Part shown: piece by piece, positions 40,738-63,187 of the stretch
Layout: every line of letters starts with the position of its first letter
Numbering within the stretch: position 1 is the first letter of the stretch
Origin: a virus
Lineage: Duplodnaviria > Heunggongvirae > Uroviricota > Caudoviricetes
Reading direction: 5' to 3' (one strand)
IMG/VR virus record: IMGVR_UViG_3300044858_003749
DNA: 64,000 nucleotides
The notes under the pieces: model-generated
Seen by the model: only the letters and a program-made list of their open reading frames with translations
The model's database searches: none
Told to the model about the DNA's origin: nothing
Made by a program: the position numbers and the translations under genes

Positions 40738-41106
40738 ATGAGGAGTAAGGGTAACCCCATGAAAACTCTCAATGAAAAAGAACAAAAAGTTTTGCTTTTG
40801 GCTCTTAATCACCATCAAAAATACCATAATGACATTATCTCTCAATATTTTTTTGAGGATGATAAAAACTCGGTTGTATCGGAATCTTTTGAAAGTCTTG
40901 GGACAATTAACGATTTACACAATACTTTTTCGGGTGATTCAAATCTTCATCTTTTGAGATCAGGAGATTTAGAAAACATTGAAGCCGCTTTTACTCGTTC
41001 TGACGAGATTTATAATAATGGTGATAATGTAATCATGAAGGCCAGTCTTTATTTGGCTCTTATTGATACTATTAAGGCAATTCTGAGAAAAGATGATTGT
41101 ACTTGA
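40738..41106 (+). CDS. hypothetical protein
   Basis: 122-aa ORF. Confidence 0.35.
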   Translation: MRSKGNPMKTLNEKEQKVLLLALNHHQKYHNDIISQYFFEDDKNSVVSESFESLGTINDLHNTFSGDSNLHLLRSGDLENIEAAFTRSDEIYNNGDNVIMKASLYLALIDTIKAILRKDDCT

Positions 41107-41536
41107 ATCTTATTTGAAACCTCGCATTTTGGACCAAGCAATCGCTGTGGCTATGGTAAGTAACGGATCTAAAAGAATTGGTGCGATTCTTCTTAAAAAG
41201 AATAAGATTGTCGCGGCAGCCTGTAACAATTACGACAAATCAGATGCGTTTCAATTTAGGGCTTCCCAAAGAGCCTCTATCATATACAATAAACCAGAAT
41301 ATTCAAAACGTGTTTACGGGCACGCTGAAACCCTGGCTCTTAAAAAAATTAACGATGGTGACGCTGATACGATTGTAGTTTGCAGACTTTCTGGTAAACA
41401 CAATTCTAAAAAACTGAGATTGGCTAGACCATGTAGAATTTGTTCTCATCTTATTCAAAATTTCTACCCCTCAATTCGGTATATCCATTATTCCACCGAA
41501 AGAGGATTTTTCTACGAGACTTGGGGTCTTATCTAA
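41093..41536 (+). CDS. cytidine/deoxycytidylate-deaminase-fold zinc enzyme (dCMP deaminase or TadA-like)
   Basis: Zinc-binding signature 'HAE' followed by 'PCRICSHL' (PCxxC). Confidence 0.6.
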   Translation: MIVLESYLKPRILDQAIAVAMVSNGSKRIGAILLKKNKIVAAACNNYDKSDAFQFRASQRASIIYNKPEYSKRVYGHAETLALKKINDGDADTIVVCRLSGKHNSKKLRLARPCRICSHLIQNFYPSIRYIHYSTERGFFYETWGLI

Positions 41537-41802
41537 TGAAAAAACTTTCTCTTAAAGAAACTCACACTCTTTTGAAGAAATACAATCATGTTATTTTTGA
41601 CGAAGAAACCTCTGGGTTAAATTCAAAACTTAATGACGATGGGTTAATTATTACGTTAAAAAGTGGTAACAATAAGAGTGTTATGTTGTTTCCCCATGAA
41701 AAAAATGAGTCTGTTGAGATCACTAAAACCACAGTAACTCTTTATGATAGTATGGGTTGGGTTCATAATTTCATCCCCCTTATGAATGCCGACTTGATTT
41801 GA
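41536..41802 (+). CDS. hypothetical protein
   Basis: ATG overlapping the deaminase stop (track ORF 41440..41802). Confidence 0.35.
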   Translation: MKKLSLKETHTLLKKYNHVIFDEETSGLNSKLNDDGLIITLKSGNNKSVMLFPHEKNESVEITKTTVTLYDSMGWVHNFIPLMNADLI

Positions 41803-41808
41803 ATTATT

Positions 41809-42135
41809 ATGAGTAATTATGAGCTAGCGAGGAGACGTAACACTCCACCAGAAGCATTATCACGTCTGGCTAATGATAAGGATTCTTATGTTCGTCGTGG
41901 GGTTGCATGGAATCCCAAGACCCCTCTAGAAACCTTAGATCGTCTGGCTAATGATAAGGATTCTTGGGTTCGTGGTGAGGTTGCATTTAATCCCAACACA
42001 CCACCAGAAGTTTTAGAACGTCTGGCTAATGACGAGTATCGGTATGTTCGTCGTTTGGTTGCCAAAAATCCCAACACGCCACAATACATTAGAACATATC
42101 TTAAAATTACCGAGGTTTTGAATTATTATGAGTAA
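41809..42135 (+). CDS. LRV/HEAT-like repeat protein (member J)
   Basis: Starts 'MSNYELARRRNTPPE'. 3 repeats plus cap. Confidence 0.7.
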   Translation: MSNYELARRRNTPPEALSRLANDKDSYVRRGVAWNPKTPLETLDRLANDKDSWVRGEVAFNPNTPPEVLERLANDEYRYVRRLVAKNPNTPQYIRTYLKITEVLNYYE

Positions 42136-42454
42136 TTATGAGCTAGCAGATAATCCCAACACCCCACCAGAAACATTAGAAAGTCTAGCGAATGACGATA
42201 ATTGGTATGTTCGTAGCTGTGTGGCATTTAATCCCAACACACCACCAGAAGCTTTAGAACGTCTGGCTGATGATGAGGATTTAAATGTTCGTTATTATGT
42301 TGCAAGAAATCCCAACACATTACCAGAAACCTTAGCTCGTCTGGCTAAGGATGAGGATTGTCGTGTTCGTCGTTGGGTTGCAAGAAATCCTAACACACCA
42401 CAATACATCAAAGATTATCTTAAAATCAAGGGGTTTTTGGGTTGTTATGAGTAA
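42128..42454 (+). CDS. LRV/HEAT-like repeat protein (member K)
   Basis: Overlaps the 'YYE*' of member J. 3 repeats. Confidence 0.7.
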   Translation: MSNYELADNPNTPPETLESLANDDNWYVRSCVAFNPNTPPEALERLADDEDLNVRYYVARNPNTLPETLARLAKDEDCRVRRWVARNPNTPQYIKDYLKIKGFLGCYE

Positions 42455-42626
42455 TATTGAACTAGCAGGAAATCCCAACACACCACCAGAAACCTTAGAT
42501 CTTCTGGCTAATGATAATATTTGGAATGTTCGTTATTTGGTTGCAAAAAATCCCAACACTCCACAATACATTAGAACATACCTTAAACTTCAAAGGACGA
42601 TTGGTGGACTGTCCACAAGAAGTTGA
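42447..42626 (+). CDS. LRV/HEAT-like repeat protein (member L, single repeat, 59 aa)
   Basis: Starts 'MSNIELAGNPNTPPETLD'. ATG at 42447 (track ORF 42351..42626). Confidence 0.55.
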   Translation: MSNIELAGNPNTPPETLDLLANDNIWNVRYLVAKNPNTPQYIRTYLKLQRTIGGLSTRS

Positions 42627-43963: not shown

Positions 43964-43968
43964 AAACT

Positions 43969-44421: not shown

Positions 44422-44821
44422 AAATAAATTTTGGGACCTTGAATCTAATCTAAATGAGATTGAATCCAATTATTTGGATCTTGAAGAGCAGTTAGCACAT
44501 TTTGTTACAGATTCGCTTCTACTTATTGAAAACTTAGATCTTGAATCTTTGGCAATACCAATATTCGCTCAGAGTCTTATTATTCGTAATTACCGAGATT
44601 ACAAATATCAAGATTTATTAAAAAAATTACTGGTATCTAAAAATTTCACACCAGGCCTAATATACCGCACAAGAGAAATTTTTACAGAAAAAGAGTTTGA
44701 ACCTTTTTTACAATACTTACTACAAAATCCAAATTTAGACCAGTATGCAAGAGAATACTACACCAACCTAAAAAAATCTTATGACCGAAGACTTACTAGG
44801 GAACAAACTAAAAAAGCTTGA
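44402..44821 (+). CDS. hypothetical protein
   Basis: 139-aa ORF. Confidence 0.35.
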   Translation: METHEIENKFWDLESNLNEIESNYLDLEEQLAHFVTDSLLLIENLDLESLAIPIFAQSLIIRNYRDYKYQDLLKKLLVSKNFTPGLIYRTREIFTEKEFEPFLQYLLQNPNLDQYAREYYTNLKKSYDRRLTREQTKKA

Positions 44822-45551
44822 GCAACTGGAGGCTGGGCGTTATGCCGATCCTTTTCTTCCACTCATGGCCAGAATTGATGGTAAGTGCTTCAGTAATTTC
44901 ACTAGAAGTCTAAAACGTCCTTATGACGAGAGATTTATTCGGCTTATGATAGCAACGACAAAATATCTTGTTGAAGAAAGTGAGGCTATTTTAGGTTATT
45001 GCCAATCTGATGAAATTACTCTTTATTGGTACTTAGATAAAGAAAACTTTTCCAATAGAGAATTCTGGTTTCGTGGTAAGTTTCAGAAATTAACTTCTGT
45101 CTTAGCCTCAACTGCTAGCTCTTATTTTTGTGGTAATCTCGCACATTATTTACCAGAAAAGACTGGTAACTATCCAACCTTTGATACAAGAGTTTGGAGT
45201 GTTCCCGATTTGGAATGCGTTTATGAGAATTTTCTATGGCGGTTTAAGGATGCGAGAAAAAATTCTGTATCCATGTATGCAAGACATTTCTTTTCACCAA
45301 ACCAGCTTTTTAAAAAGTCCTGTGAAGAAATGAAAGAAATGTTAGCGGTTATTCGTAGGCCGTGGGAAGAATTACCTAAATTCTTTACCGATGGGACGTA
45401 TATTAAAAGACAAAAATTCTTATTGTCTCCTTATGATCCTAGATGGAATGACGTTCCCTCTCAATACCGGCCAACAAAACCTGTTGAGCGTACATTGGTT
45501 TCCGTTTGGGAACCAGAGACAACGGTATCACTTGATTGGTTCACTTATTAA
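44781..45551 (+). CDS. Thg1-like tRNA(His) guanylyltransferase / 3'-5' nucleotidyltransferase
   Basis: Motif 'LMARIDGKCFSNFT...KRPYDERF...YCQSDEITLYW' matches the Thg1 pattern (vRiDG.nF, kP.DeR, sDEis). Confidence 0.65.
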   Translation: MTEDLLGNKLKKLEQLEAGRYADPFLPLMARIDGKCFSNFTRSLKRPYDERFIRLMIATTKYLVEESEAILGYCQSDEITLYWYLDKENFSNREFWFRGKFQKLTSVLASTASSYFCGNLAHYLPEKTGNYPTFDTRVWSVPDLECVYENFLWRFKDARKNSVSMYARHFFSPNQLFKKSCEEMKEMLAVIRRPWEELPKFFTDGTYIKRQKFLLSPYDPRWNDVPSQYRPTKPVERTLVSVWEPETTVSLDWFTY

Positions 45552-46131: not shown

Positions 46132-46749
46132 ATGAATTACACCGAAGAACAAGTTAAAGAAATCGTCAGAAATGTCATTTCTGAGATGCAATCTGTAAAT
46201 GTTAAGGATCTTACACTTTACCAAAAAAGGGGTGTTGCAAGAAATCCCAATACAGCACCAGAAGTCTTAGACCGTCTGGCTAATGATAAGGATTCTTATG
46301 TTCGTTGGCAGGTTGCAGAAAATCCCAACACACCACCAGAGACCTTAGAACGTCTGGCTAATGATGACGATTATTGTGTTCGTTGGAGTGTTGCATTTAA
46401 TCCCAACACACCACCAGAAACATTAGCTCGTCTAGCTAATGATGTGGATTATTGTGTTCGTACGCCGGTTGCATTTAATCCCAACACACCACCAGAAGTT
46501 TTAGAACGTCTGGCTAATGATAACGATTCTGTGGTTCGTTATTATGTTGCAAGAAATCCCAACACATTAACAGAAACTTTAGAACGTTTGGCTAATGATA
46601 AGAGTTCTTCTGTTCGTGAATGTGTTGTACAAAATCCTAACTACAAACGGAAATCCAACAATAAGATCACTATTGAGCTTACAGAAGAACAGTTGTCTCA
46701 ATTACGAAAATGTGCAGACATGTTCTCTGGTCTTTTAGGATCTGTATAA
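46132..46749 (+). CDS. LRV/HEAT-like repeat protein (member M, 5 repeats, distinct N- and C-termini)
   Basis: Repeats 'NPNTPPETLERLANDDDYCVRWSVAF'. The C-terminus 'NPNYKRK...' is shared with member N. Confidence 0.7.
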   Translation: MNYTEEQVKEIVRNVISEMQSVNVKDLTLYQKRGVARNPNTAPEVLDRLANDKDSYVRWQVAENPNTPPETLERLANDDDYCVRWSVAFNPNTPPETLARLANDVDYCVRTPVAFNPNTPPEVLERLANDNDSVVRYYVARNPNTLTETLERLANDKSSSVRECVVQNPNYKRKSNNKITIELTEEQLSQLRKCADMFSGLLGSV

Positions 46750-46776
46750 CCTTACTACCATCGTATAAAAATTATT

Positions 46777-47031
46777 ATGGAAAAACTAAAATTCGTTGAA
46801 ACCATTCTTGATCGGCTACAAGAATATTCTATATCTCATCCACAACATGATACAGATGATGTGCTTAGCAAAGCACGAAAAGAACTTGAAAAACTTAATA
46901 AAAATTATGTTTTGATTGAAAACACTGAACATATTAAACTTTTGGACAATCAACGCACTCTTTATGCTCTTCATCGTGGTGGTGTTGATAATTGGGAATG
47001 GTATGACGAGTCTTTGAGCAGTTTGGACTGA
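46777..47031 (+). CDS. hypothetical protein
   Basis: 84-aa ORF. Confidence 0.35.
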   Translation: MEKLKFVETILDRLQEYSISHPQHDTDDVLSKARKELEKLNKNYVLIENTEHIKLLDNQRTLYALHRGGVDNWEWYDESLSSLD

Positions 47032-47202
47032 CACTTTCAGAACCGTCCACAACCGCTTGACAATCCAGCCAATCCATGGTAGATTGAACAAGTTCAAAGA
47101 TGAGGCAGCAATTCCTTTCTTCTGCAAATAGAAACAAAACTCATCTTGTATTAAGTTGATTCCGCATCAACAACAGCAAAAACATCAACTTGGAGATTAA
47201 TT

Positions 47203-48666
47203 ATGACTTTTATGCAAGCTCTTTCTTCTGAAATGAACGTAACCACCACCGCTAATGGTGCCAAGGCTTACGAATCAACCGAAAATGAATGTCTTGATCT
47301 TTTCGGTTCAATTGGTGCCTGTCGCAATAATATGTCTTTGGCTGAACGGTTGTTCTTTAATGCTTATAACCAACACCCAGAAACTGCCGCTAGAATTCTC
47401 TTCTACTCCCGCGATATTCGTGGAGCTAGTCAAGGTGAGCGAGCCGTATTTCGGGCTCTTATGCCGAAGTTCGCACAAAAGAATCCGACTGTTGCAAAAA
47501 AACTTGTTTCTTTGATTCCTTATTATGGCCGATGGGATGATCTTCTATGTCTAGAAGGAACTCCTGTTTGGACAGAGGCTCTAGAAACTATTAAAGTTCA
47601 ACTTAATGCAGATCTTAATAACAATAAGGTTTCTCTGGCAGCAAAATGGATGCCTAGTATCAATGCTTCAAGCAAAGAAAGCAAGCGTCTTGGTCGGATG
47701 ATTGCGAATCATATGGGTTGGTCTGAACGACAGTATCGTAAGAATCTTTCTACTCTTCGGGCGAAAATTAACATTGTTGAAACTCCGATGTGTGCCAAAG
47801 AGTGGGGACTTATCAATTATGAGAATCTTCCTTCTCGTGCGGCGATGATGTACCGCAAAGCCTTTAAAAAGCACGATGAGACCCGATATAATAACTATCT
47901 CTCTAGTGTAGAGAAAGGTGAAGCGAAGATCAATGCTGGGACTCTGTTTCCTTATGATATTGTGAGCAAGTACCTCTACAAAGGTGCTCATAATGATAAA
48001 ACTCTTGAGCTTCAATGGGATGCTCTTCCTAATTATATGGAAGGACTAGAGTTTAATGGTCTTGTTGTTGCAGACGTTTCAGGATCAATGACTTGCGCTG
48101 CTGGTATGCCATTGGCCGTTTCTATCTCACTTGCGATGTATATTGCCGAAAGAAATCCTTCAAGCGTTTGGAAAAATAAGTTCATCACTTTTTCTCAAAA
48201 TCCAAAACTTCAATCTATTCTTGGTAATAATATTGAAGAGAAAATTAGGTATCTCCAACGTGCTGAATGGGGAGTTAATACTGATCTAATGGCAGTATTC
48301 CGTACTGTTCTTGATGCTGCAACCAATAATAATGTTGCACAATCAGATATGCCCCAGAAGCTAATTATCGTTTCCGATATGCAATTTGATAAGGCTTGTG
48401 CCTCAAATAAGCGAACTAATTTTGAGCAGATTCAGAAACTTTATCGTAAGGCTGGTTATGAAATGCCAGAACTCGTATTCTGGAATGTAAATGCTGGTGC
48501 AAATGTTCCAATTCAGGCCGATGATAATGGAACCTGTCTTGTTTCGGGATGTAGTCCTGCTATTCTAAAGAGTGTTCTTAGTGGTAAAATCGTTTCTCCT
48601 ATTGATGTTATGATGGAAAGTCTTTATGTGGAACGATACGCTCCTATTGGTGAAGCGTTTGCATAA
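47203..48666 (+). CDS. von Willebrand factor A (vWA) domain protein, DUF2828-like
   Basis: MIDAS motif 'LVVADVSGSM'. The N-terminal 'TTANGAKAYESTENECLDLFGSIGACR' block resembles phage/eukaryotic vWA-containing DUF2828 proteins. Confidence 0.55.
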   Translation: MTFMQALSSEMNVTTTANGAKAYESTENECLDLFGSIGACRNNMSLAERLFFNAYNQHPETAARILFYSRDIRGASQGERAVFRALMPKFAQKNPTVAKKLVSLIPYYGRWDDLLCLEGTPVWTEALETIKVQLNADLNNNKVSLAAKWMPSINASSKESKRLGRMIANHMGWSERQYRKNLSTLRAKINIVETPMCAKEWGLINYENLPSRAAMMYRKAFKKHDETRYNNYLSSVEKGEAKINAGTLFPYDIVSKYLYKGAHNDKTLELQWDALPNYMEGLEFNGLVVADVSGSMTCAAGMPLAVSISLAMYIAERNPSSVWKNKFITFSQNPKLQSILGNNIEEKIRYLQRAEWGVNTDLMAVFRTVLDAATNNNVAQSDMPQKLIIVSDMQFDKACASNKRTNFEQIQKLYRKAGYEMPELVFWNVNAGANVPIQADDNGTCLVSGCSPAILKSVLSGKIVSPIDVMMESLYVERYAPIGEAFA

Positions 48667-48734
48667 TTAAATTTCTTAAGATGGTTCAGCAATTCTCATA
48701 TGTTTTGGGTACATAAAAGACCATCTTGTTTAAA

Positions 48735-48848
48735 GAGCGAGTAGCTCAGGGGTAGAGCAACGTAATAACAAATCTCGTTTGAGATTTTAACAGCAATCAA
48801 AACCGCATGTTAAGCCGTAGGCCCCAGGTTCAAATCCTGGCTCGCTCA
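48735..48848 (+). tRNA. tRNA-like gene with ~40-nt insertion in the anticodon region (class II-like; anticodon unresolved)
   Basis: Acceptor GAGCGAG/CTCGCTC, D-arm GCTC-AGGGGTA-GAGC, T-arm CCAGG-TTCAAAT-CCTGG. It is 114 nt long. A stem AACGT/ATGTT flanks a 43-nt loop plus insertion. A possible short variable hairpin is GCC-GTA-GGC. Confidence 0.45.
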
Positions 48849-48958
48849 TCAGATGATTCAGCAATTATCTCTTCGCTAGGAAAACAAAATCATCTAGTTA
48901 AACAATTTTATCAATTCTCAAAAAATGTTCAATTTCGTTATTAATACTAAATAACCAA

Positions 48959-49032
48959 CAGCGGGCGAGTGTAACGGTAGTCACGTCGGGCTCATAACCC
49001 GGAGGAATATGGGTTCAATTCCCAGGTCCGCC
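48959..49032 (+). tRNA. tRNA-Met (CAT), initiator-like
   Basis: Anticodon loop CTCATAA. Three consecutive G:C pairs close the anticodon stem (GGG/CCC). There is a 1:72 A·C mismatch. The T-loop is TTCAATT. Confidence 0.6.
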
Positions 49033-49098
49033 ATCAGATGATTCAGCAATTTCAAAACTTCTTATTGGTTAGAAAAACAAAAATCATCTAGTCTTATT

Positions 49099-49219: not shown

Positions 49220-49335
49220 TTTGGTAGTCGCTAGACACATAGCCTAGAAAGACGCCATATTTTCATTATAAATACAACCAACAGACTTTAACACTACAAA
49301 ACGATCACTTAGTCTGTGTGATCTGAAAGAAACAA

Positions 49336-54617: not shown

Positions 54618-54682
54618 GTGGCTACCACGAACTTCAATGATTCTGTTTTGTGCTATGATTTTCTGGTAACTTAAGAGGTTTT

Positions 54683-54907: not shown

Positions 54908-55369
54908 TAAAAACAAATTATTACGATAACATTCTTCTAAATTTATGAACTTTGATTTTTTAGAACGACAACCAAAAATTATTCAAGAGTTTTTATTATT
55001 TTTTGTTGAAATTTATTTTGGATTTACCATAAAATGTAATATGGCATTTTTCTTATGGCGCTATATTATGACTCATGATATTGATGTATTAAAAAAACAT
55101 GTTTTGGATTAACTACATTTAATGACTTTTATGCTACACTTAATGGAGGATGGAGAGGCGCCAAATAAAAAAGTGTAAAATCTGTAAACAAACTAGGACA
55201 ACCTCTTGTTACGCCAGGTGTTTGAATTCCCGGAACAAACATTAATACAAAAGATTTTGTTTATACCTAATCAACTTGGTGTTGTGCCAATTGGAAACGT
55301 GTCCACTAATCCATCTTATATCCAGTAAATCTGCTACTATACAAGGAGTTAAAACAAATGGGTGAACTA

Positions 55370-55537
55370 TGAAACGTTTATTATCTTTTCTCTGGTCTGG
55401 CTGTTGGCATGAATGGGTAGATGAAAAACGGGAAGCTGTTACTTTTGTGAGTGATTATTCGCCGGATGTTTCTGGTTATAGAGTATTTCAGAAGTGCAAA
55501 AAATGTGGTGATACGCGGGTCAAAAGGCTTATGTAAG
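55370..55537 (+). CDS. small CxxC protein (55 aa)
   Basis: ATG with RBS AAGGAG. Ends in 'CKKCGDTRVKRLM'. Not in the ORF track because it is under 60 aa. Confidence 0.3.
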
Positions 55538-55559
55538 TTATCGCTAAATAACAATTCAC

Positions 55560-55631
55560 CTGGAAATAAGTCAGTGGTAGACGGTCTAGTTTGGGGCTAG
55601 AAAGACGTTGGTTCGAGTCCAACTTTTCAGA
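55560..55631 (+). tRNA. tRNA-Pro (TGG)
   Basis: Acceptor CTGGAAA/TTTTCAG (one G·U pair), anticodon arm TCTAG-TTTGGGG-CTAGA, T-arm GTTGG-TTCGAGT-CCAAC. 72 nt. Confidence 0.7.
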
Positions 55632-55701
55632 TTTGGGATAATCCCCAAAACAAATTGGAGATAGACTCCGATTTTTAAACTATTCTAAGGAGCTTAGAAC
55701 A

Positions 55702-56760
55702 ATGAAAAAATACGATGCGGTGGTTTTCATCGGCAGGTTTCAACCTTTCCATAACGCTCATTTTGATATTATCAAAAAAGCTTATGAGCTAACTGATTAT
55801 GTAATTCTTATCGCGGGTTCTCAGTATCAACCACCTAGCTATAAGAATCCATTTCAGGCTTTAACTTTTGACGGTTATTTTGATTCAATTGGAAAAACCA
55901 TTGATAATTATCTTAGAGTTAACTTTGAGGATTATTATGACGAAGACCGTAACTATGAGTTCTCGTTTTGTTTTCAACGAGATATTTACGGTGATAATCT
56001 CTGGTGCAAAAGTGTACAGGAAAAAGTATCAGAATTATTCTTAGGTCAAGAAGCTGAAATAGCCATTATTGGTTGTAATAAGGATGAAAGTTCTTATTAC
56101 TTAAATATGTTCCCTCAGTGGGATCTTATTGAGGTTCCTCTGGATCAAAACCTTAGTGCTACACAGATCAGAGAACTTTATTTCGTTGAAGAACCAAATA
56201 TGAGTTTTCTTCAAGGTGTTGTATCGTCTGAGGTTTTTAATTATCTTGACGAACACAAAAATACCGAATGGCACAATAATATCGTAAACGAACGAAATTT
56301 TATTGAAAAATACAAAGCCCAATATGCTTCTTTCCCATATCCACCAACATTCGTTACTGTAGATTCTGTAGTATTTCAATCCGGTCATGTTCTCGTTGTT
56401 CGGAGAAATGCTTATCCTGGTAAAGGTCTTATTGCTCTTCCTGGTGGATTCTTAGACGCTAATAGTGATGCCTCTTTGGAAGATGCTATGATTAGAGAAC
56501 TGAGAGAGGAAACAGGGCTTAAAGTGCCAACTCCGGTTCTCAAGGGATCTATTAAAGATGTTAAAGTTTTTGATTCTCTTTATAGAAGCTCTCGTGGACG
56601 GACTATTACTCATGCTCATAACATTGTATTGTCTGATGGAGAACTACCTAGAGTCAAAGGTGATTCTGATGCTGATAAGGCTTTCTGGTTACCATTCAGC
56701 CAACTTAAATCAGAGCAATTTTTTGAAGACCATTATCAAATTATCAATTATTTTCTATGA
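55702..56760 (+). CDS. natV: bifunctional NMN adenylyltransferase / Nudix hydrolase (NatV-type)
   Basis: N-terminal nucleotidyltransferase 'GRFQPFHNAH' (HxGH-type). C-terminal Nudix box 'GGFLDANSDASLEDAMIRELREETGL'. Confidence 0.8.
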   Translation: MKKYDAVVFIGRFQPFHNAHFDIIKKAYELTDYVILIAGSQYQPPSYKNPFQALTFDGYFDSIGKTIDNYLRVNFEDYYDEDRNYEFSFCFQRDIYGDNLWCKSVQEKVSELFLGQEAEIAIIGCNKDESSYYLNMFPQWDLIEVPLDQNLSATQIRELYFVEEPNMSFLQGVVSSEVFNYLDEHKNTEWHNNIVNERNFIEKYKAQYASFPYPPTFVTVDSVVFQSGHVLVVRRNAYPGKGLIALPGGFLDANSDASLEDAMIRELREETGLKVPTPVLKGSIKDVKVFDSLYRSSRGRTITHAHNIVLSDGELPRVKGDSDADKAFWLPFSQLKSEQFFEDHYQIINYFL

Positions 56761-56957
56761 TTATGAATCAAGTGCAACTGAGTAAAATGTCAAGAGAAGA
56801 AAAACTTAAGGCATTGGCTTTAATTGATAAAAACATTGAGACAACAAAACTTAAATTAAGCCAATTACATCATGAAGCCTATAAGTTGCAATATGAATTA
56901 GGTTATTACGCTAAAAAAGAAATCCTTTATGGAATTAAATATGATGTTCAAAATTAA
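56757..56957 (+). CDS. hypothetical small protein
   Basis: 66-aa ORF. Confidence 0.3.
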   Translation: MIMNQVQLSKMSREEKLKALALIDKNIETTKLKLSQLHHEAYKLQYELGYYAKKEILYGIKYDVQN

Positions 56958-57477
56958 TAAAAATCGAAACTTCCTAGAAGACTATAAGAAATATTATTTC
57001 TTTTATGATACTCCATTGTCAAATTGGGCAGGTTATTCTTTTGTTGATACAACAACTGGAGTTTCTTACAATTGCTCAGAACAGTTTATGATGCACAAGA
57101 AGGCCCTACTTTTTTCTGATTATAATACTGCCGGCAAGATCATGAATAAAGAATACCCAGGAGATCAAAAAGCCTTGGGTAGAATGGTGGCAGGCTTTGA
57201 TGTTAGCATTTGGAATGAATATGCAAGAGATCTTGTGTATGAAGGATGTTATTATAAGTTTACCCAAAATAAGGAAGCTTATGAATATCTTATGGGGACA
57301 GAAGGTTATCTTCTAGTAGAGGCATCACCAACAGATACTATTTGGGGTATTGGACTTGGAGGTTATGATGCAGATAATCAAGATCCTAAAAATTGGAGAG
57401 GAACTAACTGGTTGGGTGAAGTTCTTACACAACTACGAGAAGATTTGAAAGATAACCCAGAGTTAGTTTTATTCTAG
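56929..57477 (+). CDS. NADAR domain protein (YbiA-like, DUF1768)
   Basis: 'SNWAGYSF...YNCSEQFMMHKKALLF...TIWGIGLGG...NWRGTNWLGEVL' follows the NADAR pattern. Confidence 0.6.
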   Translation: MELNMMFKINKNRNFLEDYKKYYFFYDTPLSNWAGYSFVDTTTGVSYNCSEQFMMHKKALLFSDYNTAGKIMNKEYPGDQKALGRMVAGFDVSIWNEYARDLVYEGCYYKFTQNKEAYEYLMGTEGYLLVEASPTDTIWGIGLGGYDADNQDPKNWRGTNWLGEVLTQLREDLKDNPELVLF

Positions 57478-57501
57478 TCAGATGTAAAGACTTTAAAACA
57501 T

Positions 57502-57524
57502 AATTCAACGATAGACGTTGAATT
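57502..57524 (+). promoter_or_regulatory. perfect 9-bp hairpin upstream of nadV
   Basis: AATTCAACG, loop ATAGA, CGTTGAATT. It lies 30 nt upstream of the nadV RBS. Confidence 0.3.
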
Positions 57525-57553
57525 TTATCCACTATCATTTTAAGGAGTTTAAA

Positions 57554-59869
57554 ATGGACAACATTATTCTTTCTGCTGATTCTTACAAATACTCTCAGTT
57601 CAATCAATATCCTCCACAAACAGAGGGTGTTTATTCTTACATTGAGAGTCGCGGTGGTGGAGAAGAAGTTCTCTTTATGGGTCTTCAGATCTATCTTAAG
57701 GAATATCTATCTCGTCCCATTCGCATGGAAGATATTGACGAAGCAGAGGAACTTATTCTCGCTCACGGAGAACCTTTTTATCGTGGCGGGTGGGAATACA
57801 TCGTTAAGAAGCATGGTGGTTATCTACCCGTAAGAGTAAAAGCCGTTCCAGAAGGAATGGTGATTCCAACGAAAAATGTTTTGGTTACGATTGAGAATAC
57901 AGATCCAAACTGCTATTGGCTGACAAGTTTTCTAGAGACAAGTCTTCTTCGGCATGTTTGGTTTCCAACAACGGTTGCGACGAATTCTTATAACATCAAG
58001 AAGCTTATTTTGAGTTACTTGATTCGTAATGGAGATCCCAATACGATTGATTATAAGCTACATGACTTTGCATTTCGAGGTGTGTCTTCTTCTGAATCTG
58101 CCGGAATCGGTGGTATTGCACACCTTGTTAATTTCAAGGGAACTGATACAGTTGCCGCTCTTCGTTATGGTAGAAAATATTATAACGAAAAAATGGCAGG
58201 CTACTCGGTCCCAGCTTCAGAACATGGTGGAATCACGAGTTGGGGTAAAGAAAACGAAGTAGCGGCATATAGAAATATGCTTAATCATTATGCTAAGCCT
58301 GGTGCTATCGTCGCTTGTGTAAGTGACAGTTATGACATTTATAACGCTTGCGATAAGCTCTGGGGTGAGGAGTTAAAGGATGAAGTTATTGCTTCTGGTG
58401 CTACTCTGACGGTCAGGCCGGATTGTTATGATGATCAAACTAAGATTTTAACTCCTAGTGGGTGGAAATTATTTTGTGAATTATCGGAAAACGATCTGGT
58501 TGCCCAGGTTAATCCCGATAAAACTTATGAATTTGTCAAACCTCTTGAAATTATTAATGAATATTATGAAGGAGAAATGTATCAAATTCGGGATTTTCAC
58601 GGAAAAATTGATCTCTTAGTCACTCCTAATCATAGATTAGTGGTTGTAGATAGAGCTGGTGAACTTATAGTAAAAGAAGCCAAAGATTATAACCCAAAAA
58701 ATTTGAATTACCGAAAACTTCGTTCGGCTAAGGCCAAAACTTTTGGGAAAAATTTAACCTGGCACGAAAGACTATTAATCGCATTACAGGCTGATGGTAC
58801 TATTAGAAAAACGACCTCCAATAAGACGAGTATTGAATTCAATTTTCAAAAAGAGCGAAAGCATAATAGATTATTAAATATTCTTAATAATTTAAATTAT
58901 GAGTATAGTGTCTTTTATAGTGAGTCTAGGGAGGGCCAATCAATTATAACCGTGTCAATACCATTGGGTGAAATTGTTTCTAAAACATTTGATTGGGTTG
59001 ATATTTCAAACTTGGATAGTCAATGGTGTGAGCAATTTATAGATGAATTAAAACATTGGGATTCTTCTATTAGAAATAGTGGAAGATTTAAATATGATAC
59101 TACAGTTAAATTTAACATAGACGTAGTAGAATATATTGCCATTTCTTCAGGGAAAGGGATTTTAATTTCCGTCGCCGAAGATAATAGACAATCTTATTAT
59201 TCTGATGTTTATACTGCACATATATTGGATAATCCTTATTCTGGTGGTCAGACCATAACCAAAACAAAAGTTAATTATAAAGGAAGTGTACATTGTGTTA
59301 AAGTTCCGAGTGGTATGGTTTTAGTTAAAAGACACCGGGGAGTTTCTGTTTCTGGAAATTCTGGAGAACCTGTAGAAGTGAATCTTAAGTGTGCTCAAAT
59401 TCTTGAAAGTCATTATGGATCTACCGTAAACTCTAAAGGATTTAAGGTACTCAATAACGTCAAGCTCATTCAGGGTGATGGTGTTAATTATGAAACTGTA
59501 GATCGGGTTCTTCATGTACTTGAATCTAACGGATATAGTAGTGATAACATTGGTTTCGGAATGGGTGGCGCCCTGCTCCAGGCTGTTACTCGTGATGATT
59601 ACAAATTTGCCATGAAGTGTAGTGCGGTTAATGTGGCTGGAAATTGGAGGGATGTTTACAAGGATCCTATTACAGATCCAGGTAAAACATCTAAGAAAGG
59701 TCGTCTGAATCTGATTCATACCGATAATGGTTACGAAACGGTTCCTGAACGCCCATGGAATAAAGATGTTCTTGAGGTTGTTTATGAGAATGGAGAACTT
59801 CTAAAGGATTATACTTTGGAAGAAATCCGAGTGAACGCAAATCGGTGTATTCATAATTACTTCGCATAA
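57554..59869 (+). CDS. nadV: nicotinamide phosphoribosyltransferase (NadV/NAMPT) interrupted by an intein
   Basis: RBS AAGGAG. The exteins are continuous across 'ATLTVRPD | SGEPVEV', the conserved NAMPT RPDSG site. The 312-aa insert is described in the next entry. Confidence 0.8.
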   Translation: MDNIILSADSYKYSQFNQYPPQTEGVYSYIESRGGGEEVLFMGLQIYLKEYLSRPIRMEDIDEAEELILAHGEPFYRGGWEYIVKKHGGYLPVRVKAVPEGMVIPTKNVLVTIENTDPNCYWLTSFLETSLLRHVWFPTTVATNSYNIKKLILSYLIRNGDPNTIDYKLHDFAFRGVSSSESAGIGGIAHLVNFKGTDTVAALRYGRKYYNEKMAGYSVPASEHGGITSWGKENEVAAYRNMLNHYAKPGAIVACVSDSYDIYNACDKLWGEELKDEVIASGATLTVRPDCYDDQTKILTPSGWKLFCELSENDLVAQVNPDKTYEFVKPLEIINEYYEGEMYQIRDFHGKIDLLVTPNHRLVVVDRAGELIVKEAKDYNPKNLNYRKLRSAKAKTFGKNLTWHERLLIALQADGTIRKTTSNKTSIEFNFQKERKHNRLLNILNNLNYEYSVFYSESREGQSIITVSIPLGEIVSKTFDWVDISNLDSQWCEQFIDELKHWDSSIRNSGRFKYDTTVKFNIDVVEYIAISSGKGILISVAEDNRQSYYSDVYTAHILDNPYSGGQTITKTKVNYKGSVHCVKVPSGMVLVKRHRGVSVSGNSGEPVEVNLKCAQILESHYGSTVNSKGFKVLNNVKLIQGDGVNYETVDRVLHVLESNGYSSDNIGFGMGGALLQAVTRDDYKFAMKCSAVNVAGNWRDVYKDPITDPGKTSKKGRLNLIHTDNGYETVPERPWNKDVLEVVYENGELLKDYTLEEIRVNANRCIHNYFA
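58424..59359 (+). mobile_element. intein (312 aa) with LAGLIDADG-like homing endonuclease domain inside nadV
   Basis: Starts with Cys ('CYDDQTKILT') and has block B 'LVTPNH'. It ends '...SVSGN' with a +1 Ser. An internal 'LLIALQADGTI' is LAGLIDADG-like. Confidence 0.6.
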
Positions 59870-59954
59870 GGAGTGTGCCAGCCTAAAAACTGGCACTTTC
59901 TTTTTACGGTCGTCACATAAGGCATCTATAGTTGTTTGGTCAGACTCTCTTTTT

Positions 59955-60431
59955 ATGAAACGTCCTCAGGTAAAAACCTCTACGTTTAAGGAAATTCGTC
60001 CAATCACAAAATTGGATGATATTCCACGTATAAAGCAATTTAATTTTTTTCATAAAAAAGGAGTAAAATGTGTTAAATGTGGTTGTGAGGGAAAGTTTAT
60101 TGTTAAAGATAACCTTAATAGACGCAAAATTTGTACAGAAAATTACATTAGTTTGAGTAGGGATCATATTATTCCAATCTCTAAAGGTGGGTCCAACGTA
60201 ATAAAAAATATGCAGACGATGTGTGAATATTGTAATGGTTTAAAGGGTACCATGAATAATGAGATTTTTATGTCTATACCAAATTTCTTTTTAGACGATG
60301 CTTTTAAATGTGACCGGAGCAAAAGTTTTAAAGTGTTTATTCTTCTATTAAGAGTTATGGCAAAATTTTATAGGACTAAAACCAGGATTTACTCAAGAAT
60401 GAAAAATCTGCACTCACAAACTCTAACCTAA
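59955..60431 (+). CDS. HNH homing endonuclease
   Basis: 'KCVKCGC...DHIIPISKGGSNVIKNMQTMCEYCNGLKG' is an HNH motif with Cys pairs. It is free-standing between nadV and cysS. Confidence 0.65.
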   Translation: MKRPQVKTSTFKEIRPITKLDDIPRIKQFNFFHKKGVKCVKCGCEGKFIVKDNLNRRKICTENYISLSRDHIIPISKGGSNVIKNMQTMCEYCNGLKGTMNNEIFMSIPNFFLDDAFKCDRSKSFKVFILLLRVMAKFYRTKTRIYSRMKNLHSQTLT

Positions 60432-60452: not shown

Positions 60453-60731
60453 ATGATCAAACTGAATGAAATCACCGTCAAGGTTACGTTTAACATTAAC
60501 AAATATATTGATTATTGTTGGGACCAAAGAATCATACCATCGCAAGATAATTATAGAGAGTGGGTTATTCAGCAAATGTCTGATTGTAGTGAAGACGAAC
60601 TCAAAGTTACCTACTCTAAAAAGCAGCAAATCTTTAATAACAATAAGGTGGAATTTGTTTGTTTGAATGACAAATTGGCTAAAAGGCTAAAGCGGGGCCA
60701 CCAATTATTCAAGAAAAAAATGGAAAGATAA
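60453..60731 (+). CDS. hypothetical protein
   Basis: 92-aa ORF. Confidence 0.3.
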   Translation: MIKLNEITVKVTFNINKYIDYCWDQRIIPSQDNYREWVIQQMSDCSEDELKVTYSKKQQIFNNNKVEFVCLNDKLAKRLKRGHQLFKKKMER

Positions 60732-60886
60732 AACTCTATGGTGAATTTTTTGAGCCTATACTTAATTCCACTGACACACAAATAGGAGTGGTTGTTCAGA
60801 ATAAAAAAAGCGAATCCTTGAGGCATCATTGGGATTTAGATAAAATCTTTATTCTAAAAAGTTCTATTAAACCCTGAGCCATAACT

Positions 60887-62236
60887 ATGTCATTGTTTCT
60901 AACAGATACTCTAACAAAAGAAAAAAGGGAATTCGTTCCACTAGAAAATAACACTGTCAACATATACTCCTGTGGTGTGACCGTTTATGATCTAACACAC
61001 TTTGGTCATGCTCGCAGTTTTATAGTTTGGGATGTTCTTCGTAGACACCTAAAATGGCTTGGATATGCTGTTAAATTTGTTCAGAACTATACCGATATTG
61101 ATGATAAAATTATTGCAAAAGCCAATGAACAGAATCAAACAATCAAAGAAATAACAGAAAAGTACATTAACGAGTATGAGAAAGATATGACCTTTCTTAA
61201 TGTTATGTTGCCGGATAAGATGCCTAGAGCCACAGATCATTTATCCGAAATTCGCAGTATGATTAAAACTCTAGAATCTAAAGGTGCTGCATATACTTTA
61301 GATGGTAGTGTTTATTTTTCTGTTAATACTCATGAGAATTATGGTAGATTATCTGGAAGAATTTTAGACAATCAAAAAGATAACTCAGGTGAATTTCTTA
61401 AAAAGAATTCTTTTGATTTCGCATTATGGAAAGCTTCTAAACCAGGTGAACCGAGTTATTCTTCTTATTGGGGAAATGGTAGACCGGGATGGCATATAGA
61501 ATGTTCGGCGATGATCTGGAAGGAATTTGGAAAGACTATTGATATCCATCTTGGGGGTTCTGATCTGATTTTTCCACATCATGAGAATGAAATAGCCCAA
61601 ACTGAAGTTGCAACAGAAAATCAATTATCTCGTTGGTGGTTACATTCTGGAATGGTAATGGTTGATGGTAAAAAAATGAGCAAGTCTCTAGGAAACTTTA
61701 CAACCATTCGGTCCTTACAAGAATCAGGATTTAGTCCAATGGCCATAAGGCTTTTCGTATTACAGGGGCATTATCGCAAACCTCTTGATTTTACGGAAAA
61801 TGCTTTAAAAATGGCAACGAATTCCTGGAATAAATTAAATGAAGTTTTGTTGTTAAAATCTTCAAAAGAAACTACCGAAATTGATTTTGATGATAAGCTA
61901 AGATCTTATCACAATAATTTTATAGATGCTCTTAACGACGATCTCAATACTTCTCTTGCAATCTCAGTTCTTTTTGTTTTGGTTAAAGAAATAAGAGTGA
62001 ATAACTCAGACTCTTATATTTTACTTTTGTGCGAATTATCAGCAATTCTTGGTCTTTTTGGAGAGCAAAAGTCCAATATAAGCGAATCAGAAATTTTAGA
62101 ACAAATTGAATTAAGAAATTCAGCAAGAAAAGAAAAGAATTTTACTCTTGCGGATGAGATCAGAGAAAAATTATTAACTTCTGGTGTTAAACTTGAAGAT
62201 ACAAAAGACGGAACTAGTTTTAATTTTATTGTGTGA
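60887..62236 (+). CDS. cysS: cysteinyl-tRNA synthetase (class I)
   Basis: HIGH motif 'HFGHARSF' and KMSKS motif 'KMSKSLGN'. Zinc ligands 'CGVTVYD' and 'HIECSAM'. Confidence 0.85.
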   Translation: MSLFLTDTLTKEKREFVPLENNTVNIYSCGVTVYDLTHFGHARSFIVWDVLRRHLKWLGYAVKFVQNYTDIDDKIIAKANEQNQTIKEITEKYINEYEKDMTFLNVMLPDKMPRATDHLSEIRSMIKTLESKGAAYTLDGSVYFSVNTHENYGRLSGRILDNQKDNSGEFLKKNSFDFALWKASKPGEPSYSSYWGNGRPGWHIECSAMIWKEFGKTIDIHLGGSDLIFPHHENEIAQTEVATENQLSRWWLHSGMVMVDGKKMSKSLGNFTTIRSLQESGFSPMAIRLFVLQGHYRKPLDFTENALKMATNSWNKLNEVLLLKSSKETTEIDFDDKLRSYHNNFIDALNDDLNTSLAISVLFVLVKEIRVNNSDSYILLLCELSAILGLFGEQKSNISESEILEQIELRNSARKEKNFTLADEIREKLLTSGVKLEDTKDGTSFNFIV

Positions 62237-62311
62237 CAATAATCAAACTGGCACACAAAACATCTAAAGGCTTCTGAATTGTGTTAAGATTGAAACTTAA
62301 AGGAAAGAATT

Positions 62312-63187
62312 ATGATCATTAAAGCACCACTTCTCGCAGGAAACTTTGACCCAGCAAAGGCAAGATACCCTTATATTGCCACACAAAAGATTGATGGAAT
62401 TCGTTTCCTAATGGTTTCCGGTGTAGCTGTATCTCGCACATTCAAACCAATTCGTAATAAACACATTCAATCTCTTTTGTCTCAATACTTACCAGACGGT
62501 ATTGACGGTGAATTAACTTCTGGTAATAATTTTCAAGACTCTACGTCTGCTATTATGAGAATTGAAGGAGAGCCTGAATTTAAGGTTTGGGTCTTTGATT
62601 ATGTTAATCCGAAGTCTCCTGATATTCTGCCATATTATTTGAGAATGCTACAACTTGGAGATATTAATATTTCTCAAGAACTTAATTATGAAAAATTGTT
62701 AGGTACTAATATTAAAACCGAAGACGATCTTGTTGCTATTGATAAGATTTATCTTGAATCTGGATATGAAGGCACAATGCTTCGTGATCCAAATGGTACT
62801 TATAAATTTGGAAGATCTACCGTAAACGAAAACATTCTTCTTAAGGTAAAACACTTTATTGATGACGAAGGATTACTTGTTAATGTTCATGAGAAAATGA
62901 GCAATCAGAACGAATTAGGTGTTGATGAACTCGGACACGCTAAAAGATCTTCTGCTCTAGATGGAATGGTTCCAATGGACACTGCTGGTAGCTTGGTTGT
63001 CAATGGATCTTATGGTGAAGTTAAAATTGGTAGTGGTTTAGATGATAAATTGAGAGAATATATCTGGGCCAATAAAGAAAAACTGATTGGTAAGACCTAC
63101 GTGAAATATAAGTTCTTTCCTCATGGTGTTAAGAATCTTCCGCGCCATCCAGTTTTCATTGGATTTCGTGACCCTGATGATATGTGA
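62312..63187 (+). CDS. small ATP-dependent DNA (or RNA) ligase, minimal nucleotidyltransferase type
   Basis: Motif I 'TQKIDGIRF' (KxDG), motif IV 'EGTMLRD' and motif V 'ILLKVK'. 291 aa, the size of Chlorella-virus or T7-like ligases. Confidence 0.6.
   Translation: MIIKAPLLAGNFDPAKARYPYIATQKIDGIRFLMVSGVAVSRTFKPIRNKHIQSLLSQYLPDGIDGELTSGNNFQDSTSAIMRIEGEPEFKVWVFDYVNPKSPDILPYYLRMLQLGDINISQELNYEKLLGTNIKTEDDLVAIDKIYLESGYEGTMLRDPNGTYKFGRSTVNENILLKVKHFIDDEGLLVNVHEKMSNQNELGVDELGHAKRSSALDGMVPMDTAGSLVVNGSYGEVKIGSGLDDKLREYIWANKEKLIGKTYVKYKFFPHGVKNLPRHPVFIGFRDPDDM

Follow-up and report, generated by a model that had tools for sequence, protein, structure and literature searches.

Aminoacyl-tRNA synthetases (aaRSs), tRNAs and tRNA-repair genes have been documented in phages with genomes larger than 200 kb (PMC7162821; PMC7824862), and TROVE and Thg1 proteins have been described in jumbo phages (PMC7824862). 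Ro60 proteins with neighboring Y-like RNAs are known from bacteria, in which Rsr occurs with YrlA and YrlB (PMC4201824), and from the Thermus phage phiLo, whose Ro60 occurs with Yrl1 and Yrl2 (PMC12135203). Here, these systems are compared with a 64,000-nucleotide (nt) stretch of viral DNA, IMG/VR record IMGVR_UViG_3300044858_003749 (the window). Its accessory region encodes a lysyl-tRNA synthetase (LysRS), a cysteinyl-tRNA synthetase (CysRS), a Thg1-like protein (TLP), a tRNA-Met and a tRNA-Pro, together with a Ro60-like protein whose gene is followed by two tRNA-bodied RNAs, designated tL1 and tL2, among conserved hairpins.

A first-pass annotation, made from the sequence alone, had described about 22 kb of this region as one phage-encoded gene set for translation and tRNA maintenance. 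The Ro60-like gene and the four conserved hairpins were absent from its list. The tL RNAs are the most interesting element of the region, and the adjoining Ro60-like gene is the key piece that was missed. The explanation favored here, held with slightly better than even confidence, is that the accessory region has gathered over time genes that would sustain translation and small-RNA metabolism of an A+T-rich phage; the activities, the binding of protein to RNA and the benefit to the phage are what we infer from the genes described below.

The Ro60-like gene and the adjoining tRNA-bodied RNAs

The Ro60-like gene and the RNAs lie on the plus strand.

47057-47085, plus strand: sigma-70-like promoter match (TTGACA, 17-nt spacer, TG-TAGATT), just ahead of hairpin E0 and the Ro60-like gene
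47096-47148, plus strand: hairpin E0 (arm AAGATGAG, GCAGCAAT, variable stretch, AAACAAAA, arm CTCATCTT)
47203-48666, plus strand: Ro60-like protein, 487 aa (Pfam DUF2828 and DUF7788; PHROG 850, 'RNA-binding protein'), directly upstream of the tL1/tL2 cluster
48677-48728, plus strand: hairpin E1 (-13.6 kcal/mol, z-score -2.84)
48735-48848, plus strand: tL1, a 114-nt tRNA-bodied non-coding RNA with acceptor, D and T arms and a 53-nt insert instead of the anticodon loop
48849-48897, plus strand: hairpin E2, beginning directly after the tL1 discriminator base
48960-49033, plus strand: initiator-like tRNA-Met(CAU) (ARAGORN; Rfam 38.7 bits), CCA not encoded
49034-49091, plus strand: hairpin E3, beginning directly after the tRNA-Met discriminator base
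49099-49219, plus strand: tL2, a 121-nt tRNA-bodied non-coding RNA of a second subtype (insert: AAACAAA, hairpin AATGATCT-agac-AGATCATT, CAGCAAT)
49336-50040, plus strand: 234-aa protein with a C-terminal zinc ribbon (Pfam Zn_Ribbon_1, E 2.3e-5, 24.5 bits, just below the 25-bit cut-off)

The operon order is promoter, hairpin, Ro60-like gene, hairpin, tL1, hairpin, tRNA-Met, hairpin and tL2. With agreement at 10 of 12 positions and an extended -10 TG, the promoter-like site is a consensus match only. No intrinsic-terminator-like sites were found in 46700-49400.

Both tL RNAs join the body of a tRNA to a conserved module at the place of the anticodon loop. The module of tL1 consists of an A-rich stretch, the hairpin AAATCTC-gttt-GAGATTT and CAGCAAT; this RNA matches the Rfam tRNA model at 50.7 bits with a 53-nt insertion, has a folding z-score of -4.28 and scores 110.7 bits with R1, a covariance model built from nine tL copies. 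tL2, which scores 49.3 bits with R1 (E 3.4e-8), has a perfect 7-bp acceptor stem (ACGAGAG/CTCTCGT) and homologues in the related loci L005, L007, L053 and L064 (related loci are given by L numbers throughout). ARAGORN left tL1, tL2 and the related copies all uncalled, and neither RNA of the window has the 7-nt anticodon loop of a canonical tRNA. The first-pass annotation had counted them as two further tRNA-like genes; the acceptor, D and T arms justify the likeness, but with a conserved module of about 50 nt instead of an anticodon loop they are not tRNAs.

The copies detected with R1, of 112-121 nt, are confined to the cyanophage lineage in which the DUF2828 protein shares at least 64% identity with that of the window. 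There are one to four per locus, always on the same strand and downstream of the Ro60-like gene where the fetched stretch holds that gene; loci with both tL RNAs and the Ro60-like gene are L002-L008, L053, L064, L084, L085, L089 and L132. The Ro60-like protein is 63.7% identical to its counterparts in Synechococcus phages B3 and B23, and in B3 a homologous 110-nt RNA follows the DUF2828 gene. The annotation of this B3 copy as 'tRNA-Pseudo-GCA' is what would be expected if tL RNAs were decayed tRNA genes.

The conservation of the tL RNAs points the other way. Base pairing is kept in 99.3% of cells across 18 distinct copies, with compensatory changes at 16 of the 23 pairs, and drops to about 45% when the partners are slid by 1-3 columns; these counts come from an alignment fitted to the model, which lessens their weight in favor of a functional RNA. 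Pseudogenes would not retain such pairing and compensation across so many distinct copies. The acceptor stems vary between copies and are less conserved than the insert, in whose consensus an A-rich stretch precedes a 5-8-bp hairpin, invariant in its AUCU/AGAU core, and C(A/U/C)GCA(A/U)U follows.

Two other readings of the insert were rejected. If it were an intron, a 3-bp ACG/CGU stem would be all that remained after excision, with the anticodon loop missing, and no tRNA could result from splicing; furthermore, the insert is conserved while the acceptor stems vary. Alternatively, C(A/U/C)GCA(A/U)U (CUGCAAU in the B3 copy) could be a tRNA-Cys anticodon loop read by the phage CysRS. In the consensus fold, however, this motif is not in a 7-nt hairpin loop. 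The main identity element for E. coli CysRS is U73; most tL copies have A at the discriminator position, and phages B3 and B23, which carry the RNAs, gave no CysRS match.

The stand-alone hairpins share one form, namely the arm AGAUGAU, UCAGCAAU, 15-28 variable bases, AAAACAAA and the arm AUCAUCU. Their 14-nt motif has four occurrences within 500 nt, compared with 0.41 expected over the whole window, and the arms covary among about 25 hairpin copies in related loci. In the hairpins, the helix has the conserved strands on its loop side, and in the tL inserts on its open side, such that the two are circularly permuted versions of the same local structure; the stand-alone hairpins have an end-to-end stem, whereas the free ends of tL RNAs are those of the tRNA acceptor stem. 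This occurrence of the helix and its flanks in two circularly permuted contexts suggests a shared ligand rather than a position-dependent signal. Exact 15-mer matches in IMG/VR are mostly chance: the full hairpin is present at 10 of the 80 fetched loci with such a match, and the fetched stretch contains the Ro60-like gene at seven of these 10 and at none of the other 70. Against a role in binding, the hairpins may be ordinary signals for stability or processing, given that hairpin E0, after the promoter match and upstream of the Ro60-like gene, is near a likely transcript 5' end and that E2 and E3 directly follow discriminator bases, as tRNA 3' trailers would. Neither tL1 nor tRNA-Met encodes CCA before its adjoining hairpin. 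As a separate observation, a 250-kb contig (L055) has a group I intron at 12375-12572 (Rfam, 53.6 bits), about 1.6 kb downstream of its TLP gene and with a stand-alone hairpin nearby (11925-11973).

The protein encoded upstream of these RNAs combines a helical-repeat N-terminal part with a vWA domain that has a DxSxS motif (DVSGSM). In an AlphaFold2 model (predicted local distance difference test score, pLDDT, of 79.5), the helical-repeat ring and vWA fold that define Ro60/TROVE proteins are both present, and the seven best Foldseek matches are all Ro60/TROVE structures, including the Ro60 of Thermus phage phiLo (E 2.5e-6) and Xenopus Ro. A profile built from 21 relatives reached TROVE chains only at E 0.046, around DVSGSM. 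Counting against a relationship to Ro60, the protein has no match to Pfam TROVE, phmmer found none among PDB sequences, and the model is of moderate confidence (predicted template-modeling score, pTM, of 0.69) with TM-scores of only 0.34-0.48. In combination, these results indicate a protein that is Ro60-like by its predicted fold and lies outside the sequence definition of TROVE.

DUF2828 is widespread, with 697 matching records in a collection of 50,697 phage records, including phages named for Listeria, Staphylococcus, Vibrio, Campylobacter, Mycobacterium and E. coli. A full-text search found no literature on DUF2828 in phages or linked to RNA. In distant phages, DUF2828 genes are usually just downstream of same-strand tRNA arrays, and a transfer-messenger RNA (tmRNA) is nearby at three loci. 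The R1 model found no tL-type RNAs at these distant loci, as would be the case if the Ro60-like protein were unconnected with such RNAs. Among individual loci, L007 and L008 (both 5528-5779) carry a cyanobacterial permuted-type tmRNA just upstream of the DUF2828 gene, after a 24-tRNA array, and L014 (12203-12567) and L015 (12382-12760) carry a standard-type tmRNA downstream of it.

The zinc-ribbon protein has homologues of 65-68% identity in L053, L003/L004 and L057. In the window, L053, L003/L004 and L064/L065, its gene lies a short way downstream of the RNA cluster, and L003/L004 have a second copy between the RNAs. This protein could be another partner of the tL RNAs or hairpins.

From these observations, DUF2828/DUF7788 proteins are tentatively proposed to be a distinct branch of Ro60-like rings, whose partners in this cyanophage lineage would be a new RNA class made up of the tL bodies and the permuted hairpins, in a particle that may target the tRNA pool or the RNA-decay enzymes of the host during infection, perhaps alongside TLP and the aaRSs. 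This is a possibility that we regard as short of probable. Weighing against the favored explanation, a search of 40000-64000 with Rfam (E up to 1) returned only tRNA matches and two at chance level, with no Y RNA family.

Synthetases, Thg1-like protein and ordinary tRNAs

The phage of the window is a T4-like cyanomyovirus, as its large open reading frames (ORFs) match tail, baseplate-hub and tail-fiber PHROGs, T4 gp59, a gp32-type single-stranded DNA-binding protein and PhoH. A 1555-aa fiber protein matched 459 phage records, every one of which bears the name of a Synechococcus or Prochlorococcus phage, a cyanophage or a marine virus; the closest matches are in Synechococcus phages B3 and B23 (46.6% identity). 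These two phages are subarctic-lake isolates with 244-kb genomes of 34.8% G+C and a host within the Synechococcus-Cyanobium complex (PMC7171214). The G+C content of the window is 36%. Megablast of 41000-63200 against the phage collection gave zero nucleotide-level matches, and the phage was placed by protein searches. A metagenomic scaffold of 244,048 bp (L064; ENA ERZ28594530 scaffold_3) is about 97% identical to the window over the shared parts, which puts the genome at about 244 kb and makes it that of a jumbo phage. In combination, these results describe a freshwater T4-like cyanomyovirus of about 244 kb with G+C-rich Synechococcus or Cyanobium as its likely hosts; the host is deduced solely from the donors of the aaRSs and the nearest isolates, which counts against the favored explanation. 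Among the baseplate genes of the window, an ORF at 9258-9710 (minus strand) has the N-terminal domain of a TnsA-like endonuclease, and nearby, at 4193-4993, an N6/N4 DNA methylase is encoded.

44781-45551, plus strand: TLP, a bacterial-type 3'-5' nucleotidyltransferase of 256 aa (Pfam Thg1, phrog_4717)
51826-53313, plus strand: ORF of a class II LysRS, with the ATG at 51835 as the likely start, matching a 492-aa database twin
55560-55631, plus strand: tRNA-Pro(UGG), an ordinary tRNA (ARAGORN and Rfam) on a 5.26-kb insertion-deletion (indel)
60887-62236, plus strand: class I CysRS (Pfam tRNA-synt_1e 407.5 bits; DALR_2 39.2 bits)

The family assignments that the first-pass annotation gave to the two aaRSs hold in profile searches, as both exceed the equivalog cut-offs of NCBIfam. 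LysRS scores 638.8 with TIGR00499 (cut-off 427.6) and 688.6 with NF001756 (cut-off 468), with Pfam matches to tRNA-synt_2 (303 bits) and to the OB anticodon domain, tRNA_anti-codon (57 bits). Its residues 5-490 align end to end with the LysRS of G. stearothermophilus (3A74, 5.9e-161). CysRS scores 522.4 with TIGR00435 (cut-off 340), and its residues 5-445 align with E. coli CysRS (1LI5), with the C-terminal anticodon-binding part included.

Every catalytic motif checked by eye against these solved homologues is kept. In LysRS, these are motif 2 (FRNEG...HNPEFT), motif 3 (GGLGIGIDR) and the lysine/ATP-binding segment, with functional roles as established for LysU and LysS structures. In CysRS, the stretches SCGVTVYD, HFGH (HIGH), PGWHIEC, PHHENE and KMSKS lie opposite their E. 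coli counterparts, and include the zinc ligands known in E. coli as Cys28, Cys209, His234 and Glu238, in addition to Trp205. Both enzymes look catalytically competent and of picocyanobacterial descent.

Their histories appear to differ. LysRS is 68-72% identical to the enzymes of Synechococcus and Cyanobium, while CysRS is 51-53% identical to those of Cyanobium, Synechococcus and Vulcanococcus and 50-56% identical to the CysRS of related phage contigs. The G+C content at third codon positions (GC3) is 0.355 in the LysRS gene and 0.24 in the CysRS gene, compared with 0.267 in phage genes and 0.80 in the host gene. Because both the identities and GC3 differ, LysRS looks like the more recent host capture and CysRS like the older one. 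LysRS is missing from the corresponding place in L053, and a peptide-pattern search of IMG/VR for its relatives found zero; a 76%-identical homologue surfaced only in a large protein collection, on a small contig in which it is flanked by ORFs of 172 aa (upstream) and 77 aa (downstream), the sizes seen in the window. In other relatives, CysRS is placed elsewhere, near ribonucleotide reductase genes, an ORF with an EF-Ts domain, an ORF with a ValRS_C domain and the TLP gene. In L060, the ORFs with the EF-Ts domain (13814-14401, 195 aa) and the ValRS C-terminal domain (15352-16035, 227 aa) lie between CysRS and the TLP gene, as also in L061 and L062; homologues of the two ORFs were searched for in the window and none were found.

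In the phage collection, matches to CysRS and LysRS are mostly unannotated contigs of multi-contig records or whole bacterial assemblies, the former named for phages of Listeria, Staphylococcus, Enterococcus and Salmonella. Most are read as host sequence, with few in large or jumbo phage genomes. No cyanophages were among the CysRS or full-length LysRS matches listed from the 50,697 records. The first-pass annotation had called aaRS genes rare in phages of this size class, which holds in that their occurrence is sporadic; the size argument itself carries little weight, given a genome of about 244 kb and the aaRSs already documented in phages above 200 kb (PMC7162821).

A rationale for LysRS is found in amino acid demand. 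The composition of 44 phage ORFs was compared with that of 19 genes from the LysRS neighborhood of Synechococcus sp. BS55D (66% G+C), a comparison whose force is reduced by its reliance on 19 genes of one Synechococcus genome and by a host that is itself inferred. Lysine makes up 7.05% of phage residues and 1.99% of those in the Synechococcus sample (about 3.5 times as much), and AAA occurs at 47.5 versus 3.1 per 1000 codons. Similarly, CCA occurs at 18.1 versus 5.3 per 1000 codons. LysRS and tRNA-Pro(UGG) thus fit as supplements to the host pool, as had been suggested for the A+T-rich codon usage of the phage. The suggestion does not extend to cysteine, at 0.99% in the phage and 0.82% in the Synechococcus sample: since its usage is not raised, composition does not account for CysRS, which has no compositional rationale and in this respect weighs against the favored explanation. 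ARAGORN found no phage tRNA-Lys or tRNA-Cys accompanying the aaRSs in the window, and there is no tRNA-His in the window.

Whereas tRNA-Pro was borne out with a UGG anticodon, the initiator-like character of tRNA-Met is supported in part. Bacterial initiator tRNAs have three G:C pairs in the anticodon stem, an unpaired 1:72 position (C1/A72 in E. coli) and A11:U24. The phage tRNA is a real tRNA with three G:C pairs (G29-G31:C39-C41) and an unpaired A1/C72, but it has U11:A24 as in elongators and two mismatches (U13/U22 and A49/G65). The 'initiator-like' label is therefore fair, although not proven. All 74 bases are identical in L053, though the neighboring proteins are only 66-83% identical, suggesting that this tRNA is under strong constraint.

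The identification of a Thg1-like 3'-5' nucleotidyltransferase also stands. TLP scores 93.8 bits with Pfam Thg1 (cut-off 29.2) and 216 bits with phrog_4717, and its best PDB match is the TLP of B. thuringiensis (4KGK, 3.8e-22). The putative catalytic carboxylates D33 (RIDG) and D77-E78 (SDE) are invariant in six lineage homologues of 68-74% identity. Compared with bacterial TLPs such as 4KGK, the phage protein has the same Thg1 domain with kept catalytic carboxylates and a similar length, and is nearer to TLPs than to eukaryotic Thg1; it differs in being phage-encoded and of low identity to the solved TLP. By these matches, it belongs to a family known for tRNA 5'-end repair. Homologues occur in 151 phage records, and the matches listed are mostly large phages, with no cyanophages among them.

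Neighboring genes of the accessory region

Other genes of the accessory region, including two that had been assigned to the tRNA-maintenance set, are given below.

41093-41536, plus strand: small zinc deaminase of the cytidine deaminase (CDA) fold, 147 aa (Pfam dCMP_cyt_deam_1, PF00383, 28.9 bits, cut-off 25)
54610-59870, plus strand: 5.26-kb segment absent from L064/L065 (strains about 97% identical), containing a 74-aa ORF, tRNA-Pro(UGG) (55560-55631), NMNAT-Nudix (55702-56760), NADAR (56929-57477) and NAMPT (57518-59869)
62312-63187, plus strand: ATP-dependent DNA ligase (phrog_114 185.9 bits; DNA_ligase_OB_2 33.8 bits, cut-off 28)

The deaminase, which had been suggested to be TadA-like, reached no TadA model in NCBIfam, in which its sole match was to cytidine deaminase at 20 bits (cut-off 131 bits). 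It has the motifs HAE (residues 77-79) and PCRIC (113-117, PCxxC); in a family of 56 relatives, H77 and E79 are invariant and P113, C114 and C117 are at least 90% conserved. As phmmer against the PDB gave nothing meaningful, a profile of this 56-member family was used, and its best match was the deoxycytidylate (dCMP) deaminase of cyanophage S-TIM5 (4P9C, 2.8e-14), followed by two cellular dCMP deaminases (to 2.8e-10); the best TadA (2NX8, 3.2e-9) ranks below these three. The protein shares with the S-TIM5 enzyme and with TadA the small CDA fold, HAE and PCxxC, and with the former its presence in a phage, although it is distant from it, with HAETLA in place of HAEQNA. The family is rare, with 71 relatives among 1.84 billion cluster representatives. 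Homologues of 50-80% identity are found in L053, L054, L055 and L059, and in the last three the gene is about 300 bases upstream of the NMNAT-Nudix gene. The protein thus appears closer to dCMP deaminases than to TadA, while being assignable to neither, and for this reason it is probably not part of the tRNA set.

The minimal ligase is ATP-dependent, as had been noted, but is a DNA-replication enzyme. Its identity is 63% with the DNA ligases of B3 and B23, 62% with the S-CRM01 enzyme and 44% with the DNA ligases of 58-kb Pseudomonas phages; it matches 725 phage records, and the matches listed are annotated as DNA ligase. The KIDG motif is at residues 26-29, and the match to DNA_ligase_A_M (18.2 bits) is under its cut-off. 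An RNA-ligase reading was rejected, with no RNA ligase family (Rnl1, Rnl2 or RtcB) among the Pfam, PHROG and NCBIfam matches. The gene encodes a minimal two-domain replicative DNA ligase outside the tRNA set, so that both ligase and deaminase appear to be neighbors rather than members of that set. Beyond the window, about 9 kb past CysRS in L064, there are a ClpS-domain ORF and an ORF at 19194-19673 that resembles AAA_33/KTI12-like P-loop kinases; the latter could be a polynucleotide kinase relevant to RNA repair.

The 5.26-kb block looks like a mobile salvage module for nicotinamide adenine dinucleotide (NAD+). Such NAD gene sets, as in NARP2, reportedly restore NAD+ against NAD-depleting immunity. 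NMNAT-Nudix and NAMPT (with NADAR too in L056) lie upstream of the TLP gene in L054-L056 and L059, and an HNH endonuclease gene (59955-60431) abuts the block. NAMPT contains a 312-aa insert (58424-59359), probably an intein, that starts with Cys, ends with Asn followed by Ser and has a weak, sub-threshold match to Intein_splicing (E 0.0023). NAMPT has the same 783-aa form in L054/L059, and its matches are in separate pieces in L055/L056.

Just upstream of the Ro60-like operon, an 84-aa ORF (46777-47031) has the T7 gp5.9 RecBCD-inhibitor domain (35 bits, cut-off 24.5). Six paralogous ORFs with the repeat 'NPNTPPE.L..LAND.D..VR' (39997-40533, 41809-42135, 42128-42454, 42351-42626, 46132-46749 and 63265-63681) are spread through the accessory region and related phages; the ORF at 46132-46749 matches Pfam LRV at 111.6 bits, and similar stretches at the DNA level are present in 31.9-36.4 kb.

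Competing explanations and comparison with described systems

Of the set first described, LysRS, CysRS, TLP, tRNA-Pro and tRNA-Met are real, and the ligase, the TadA assignment, the two further tRNAs and the idea of a single module did not hold. As LysRS is missing from L053, tRNA-Pro is on an indel and CysRS lies elsewhere in other relatives, the gene set consists of separate acquisitions. Overall, most of what was first described stands, and its interpretation finds partial support. Under the explanation of genes gathered over time, LysRS would add Lys-tRNA charging capacity for lysine-rich phage proteins, CysRS, an earlier capture with diverged copies in related phages, would add Cys-tRNA charging, tRNA-Pro(UGG) would serve the phage-favored CCA codon, and TLP would restore damaged 5' ends of tRNAs through templated 3'-5' addition. 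The operon transcript would be cleaved at its tRNA-shaped bodies by RNase P and RNase Z, and the Ro60-like ring would bind the helix-plus-loops module that tL RNAs and free hairpins have in common. This would give a particle similar to the Ro60-Y RNA particle, which may serve in RNA quality control or in the recruitment of host RNA enzymes. Telling against this explanation, the aaRSs, TLP and the RNA operon do not travel together: B3 and B23 have the RNAs with no CysRS match, and they are not among the LysRS or Thg1 matches listed.

Alternatively, as the first-pass annotation had offered by way of example, the set may mainly enable the phage to survive tRNA cleavage or depletion by host defenses, with the tRNAs as replacements, TLP for 5'-end repair, the tL RNAs, which have no anticodon loop, as uncleavable decoys for tRNA-binding nucleases or toxins, and the aaRSs for recharging. 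This appears unlikely, though several features agree with it. TLPs and TROVE proteins are listed among the RNA-repair components of jumbo phages (PMC7824862), the RecBCD-inhibitor domain and the mobile block of NAMPT, NMNAT-Nudix and NADAR are neighbors of a counter-defense type, and the tL RNAs have perfect tRNA bodies in which the usual nuclease target is replaced. However, the window has no Rnl1, Rnl2, RtcB, polynucleotide kinase/phosphatase or CCA-adding enzyme, its only ligase is the DNA ligase, and the aaRSs lack a tRNA-Lys or tRNA-Cys beside them. In addition, because the sequence of the tL insert is conserved, a specific binding partner fits better than a passive decoy.

It is similarly improbable that the aaRSs, TLP, deaminase, ligase and NAD genes are unrelated captures in a plastic landing region, each with its own small benefit or none, such that their proximity is uninformative. 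The absence of the 5.26-kb NAD/tRNA-Pro block from strains about 97% identical, the absence of LysRS from L053 and the placement of CysRS beside ribonucleotide reductase genes and the EF-Ts-domain and ValRS_C-domain ORFs in other relatives would all be expected from such captures, as would the interspersed HNH endonuclease, intein-like insert and six LRV-repeat paralogues and the different apparent ages of the two aaRSs. On the other hand, the aaRSs keep all checked catalytic motifs despite 30-50% divergence from their donors, which argues for selection on their activity. The 76%-identical LysRS lies between ORFs of the same sizes on another contig, and TLP and the Ro60-like/tL block are conserved in the lineage in a fixed order. 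Relatives carry further translation-type genes, suggesting that translation genes recur in this lineage.

Finally, it is less probable still that the tL RNAs are decayed or intron-bearing tRNA genes, the hairpins mere processing or stability signals and the Ro60-like protein unconnected with either, as the compensated pairing, the insert that is more conserved than the acceptor stems and leaves no tRNA on removal, the permuted contexts of the module, and the presence of the Ro60-like gene with the full hairpin rather than the bare 15-mer outweigh the 'tRNA-Pseudo-GCA' label, the trailer-like positions of the hairpins and the tRNA arrays without tL-type RNAs at distant DUF2828 genes.

Returning to the explanation of genes gathered over time, the phage resembles the huge and jumbo phages of earlier surveys (PMC7162821; PMC7824862) in its genome of more than 200 kb, in tRNAs and aaRSs related to but distinct from those of the host, and in its sporadic Thg1 and TROVE-type genes. 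It differs in being a T4-like cyanomyovirus, a group without CysRS or full-length LysRS among the isolates listed, and in having only two aaRSs and no RNA ligase, kinase or CCA-adding enzyme in the window. If the assignments are correct, T4-like cyanophages join the phages that carry working aaRSs, with an A+T-rich phage in a G+C-rich host needing far more Lys-tRNA. Should the link between RNA and protein fail, the remainder would be an uncommon but ordinary case of host-gene capture in a jumbo phage.

With Ro60-Y RNA particles, the locus shares a predicted ring-type fold of helical repeats and vWA domain and adjacent, same-strand, small structured RNAs, of which one class is a tRNA mimic and the other a plain stem with a large loop. 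The protein differs in belonging to DUF2828/DUF7788 rather than TROVE, with no detectable sequence match to solved Ro60; the RNAs match no Rfam Y RNA family. The Yrl RNAs of phiLo were found by a CGAA motif, which is not conserved in the present hairpins. A further difference speaks against the comparison: the ends of YrlA form the Ro-binding stem, while the free ends of tL RNAs lie in the acceptor stem, with the putative binding module at the site of the anticodon loop. Three elements appear to be new: a DUF2828-type Ro60-like protein alongside RNAs of this tRNA-bodied topology, the module in its permuted form, and aaRSs in a T4-like cyanophage. If the proposed association is correct, the widespread DUF2828 family gains a hypothesis for its function, as a Ro60-like, tRNA-associated RNA-binding protein. 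Such a compact system of one gene, two RNA classes and a short module would then serve for the study of Ro60-type RNA recognition and of the reasons for the repeated appearance of tRNA mimicry among the RNA partners of such proteins.

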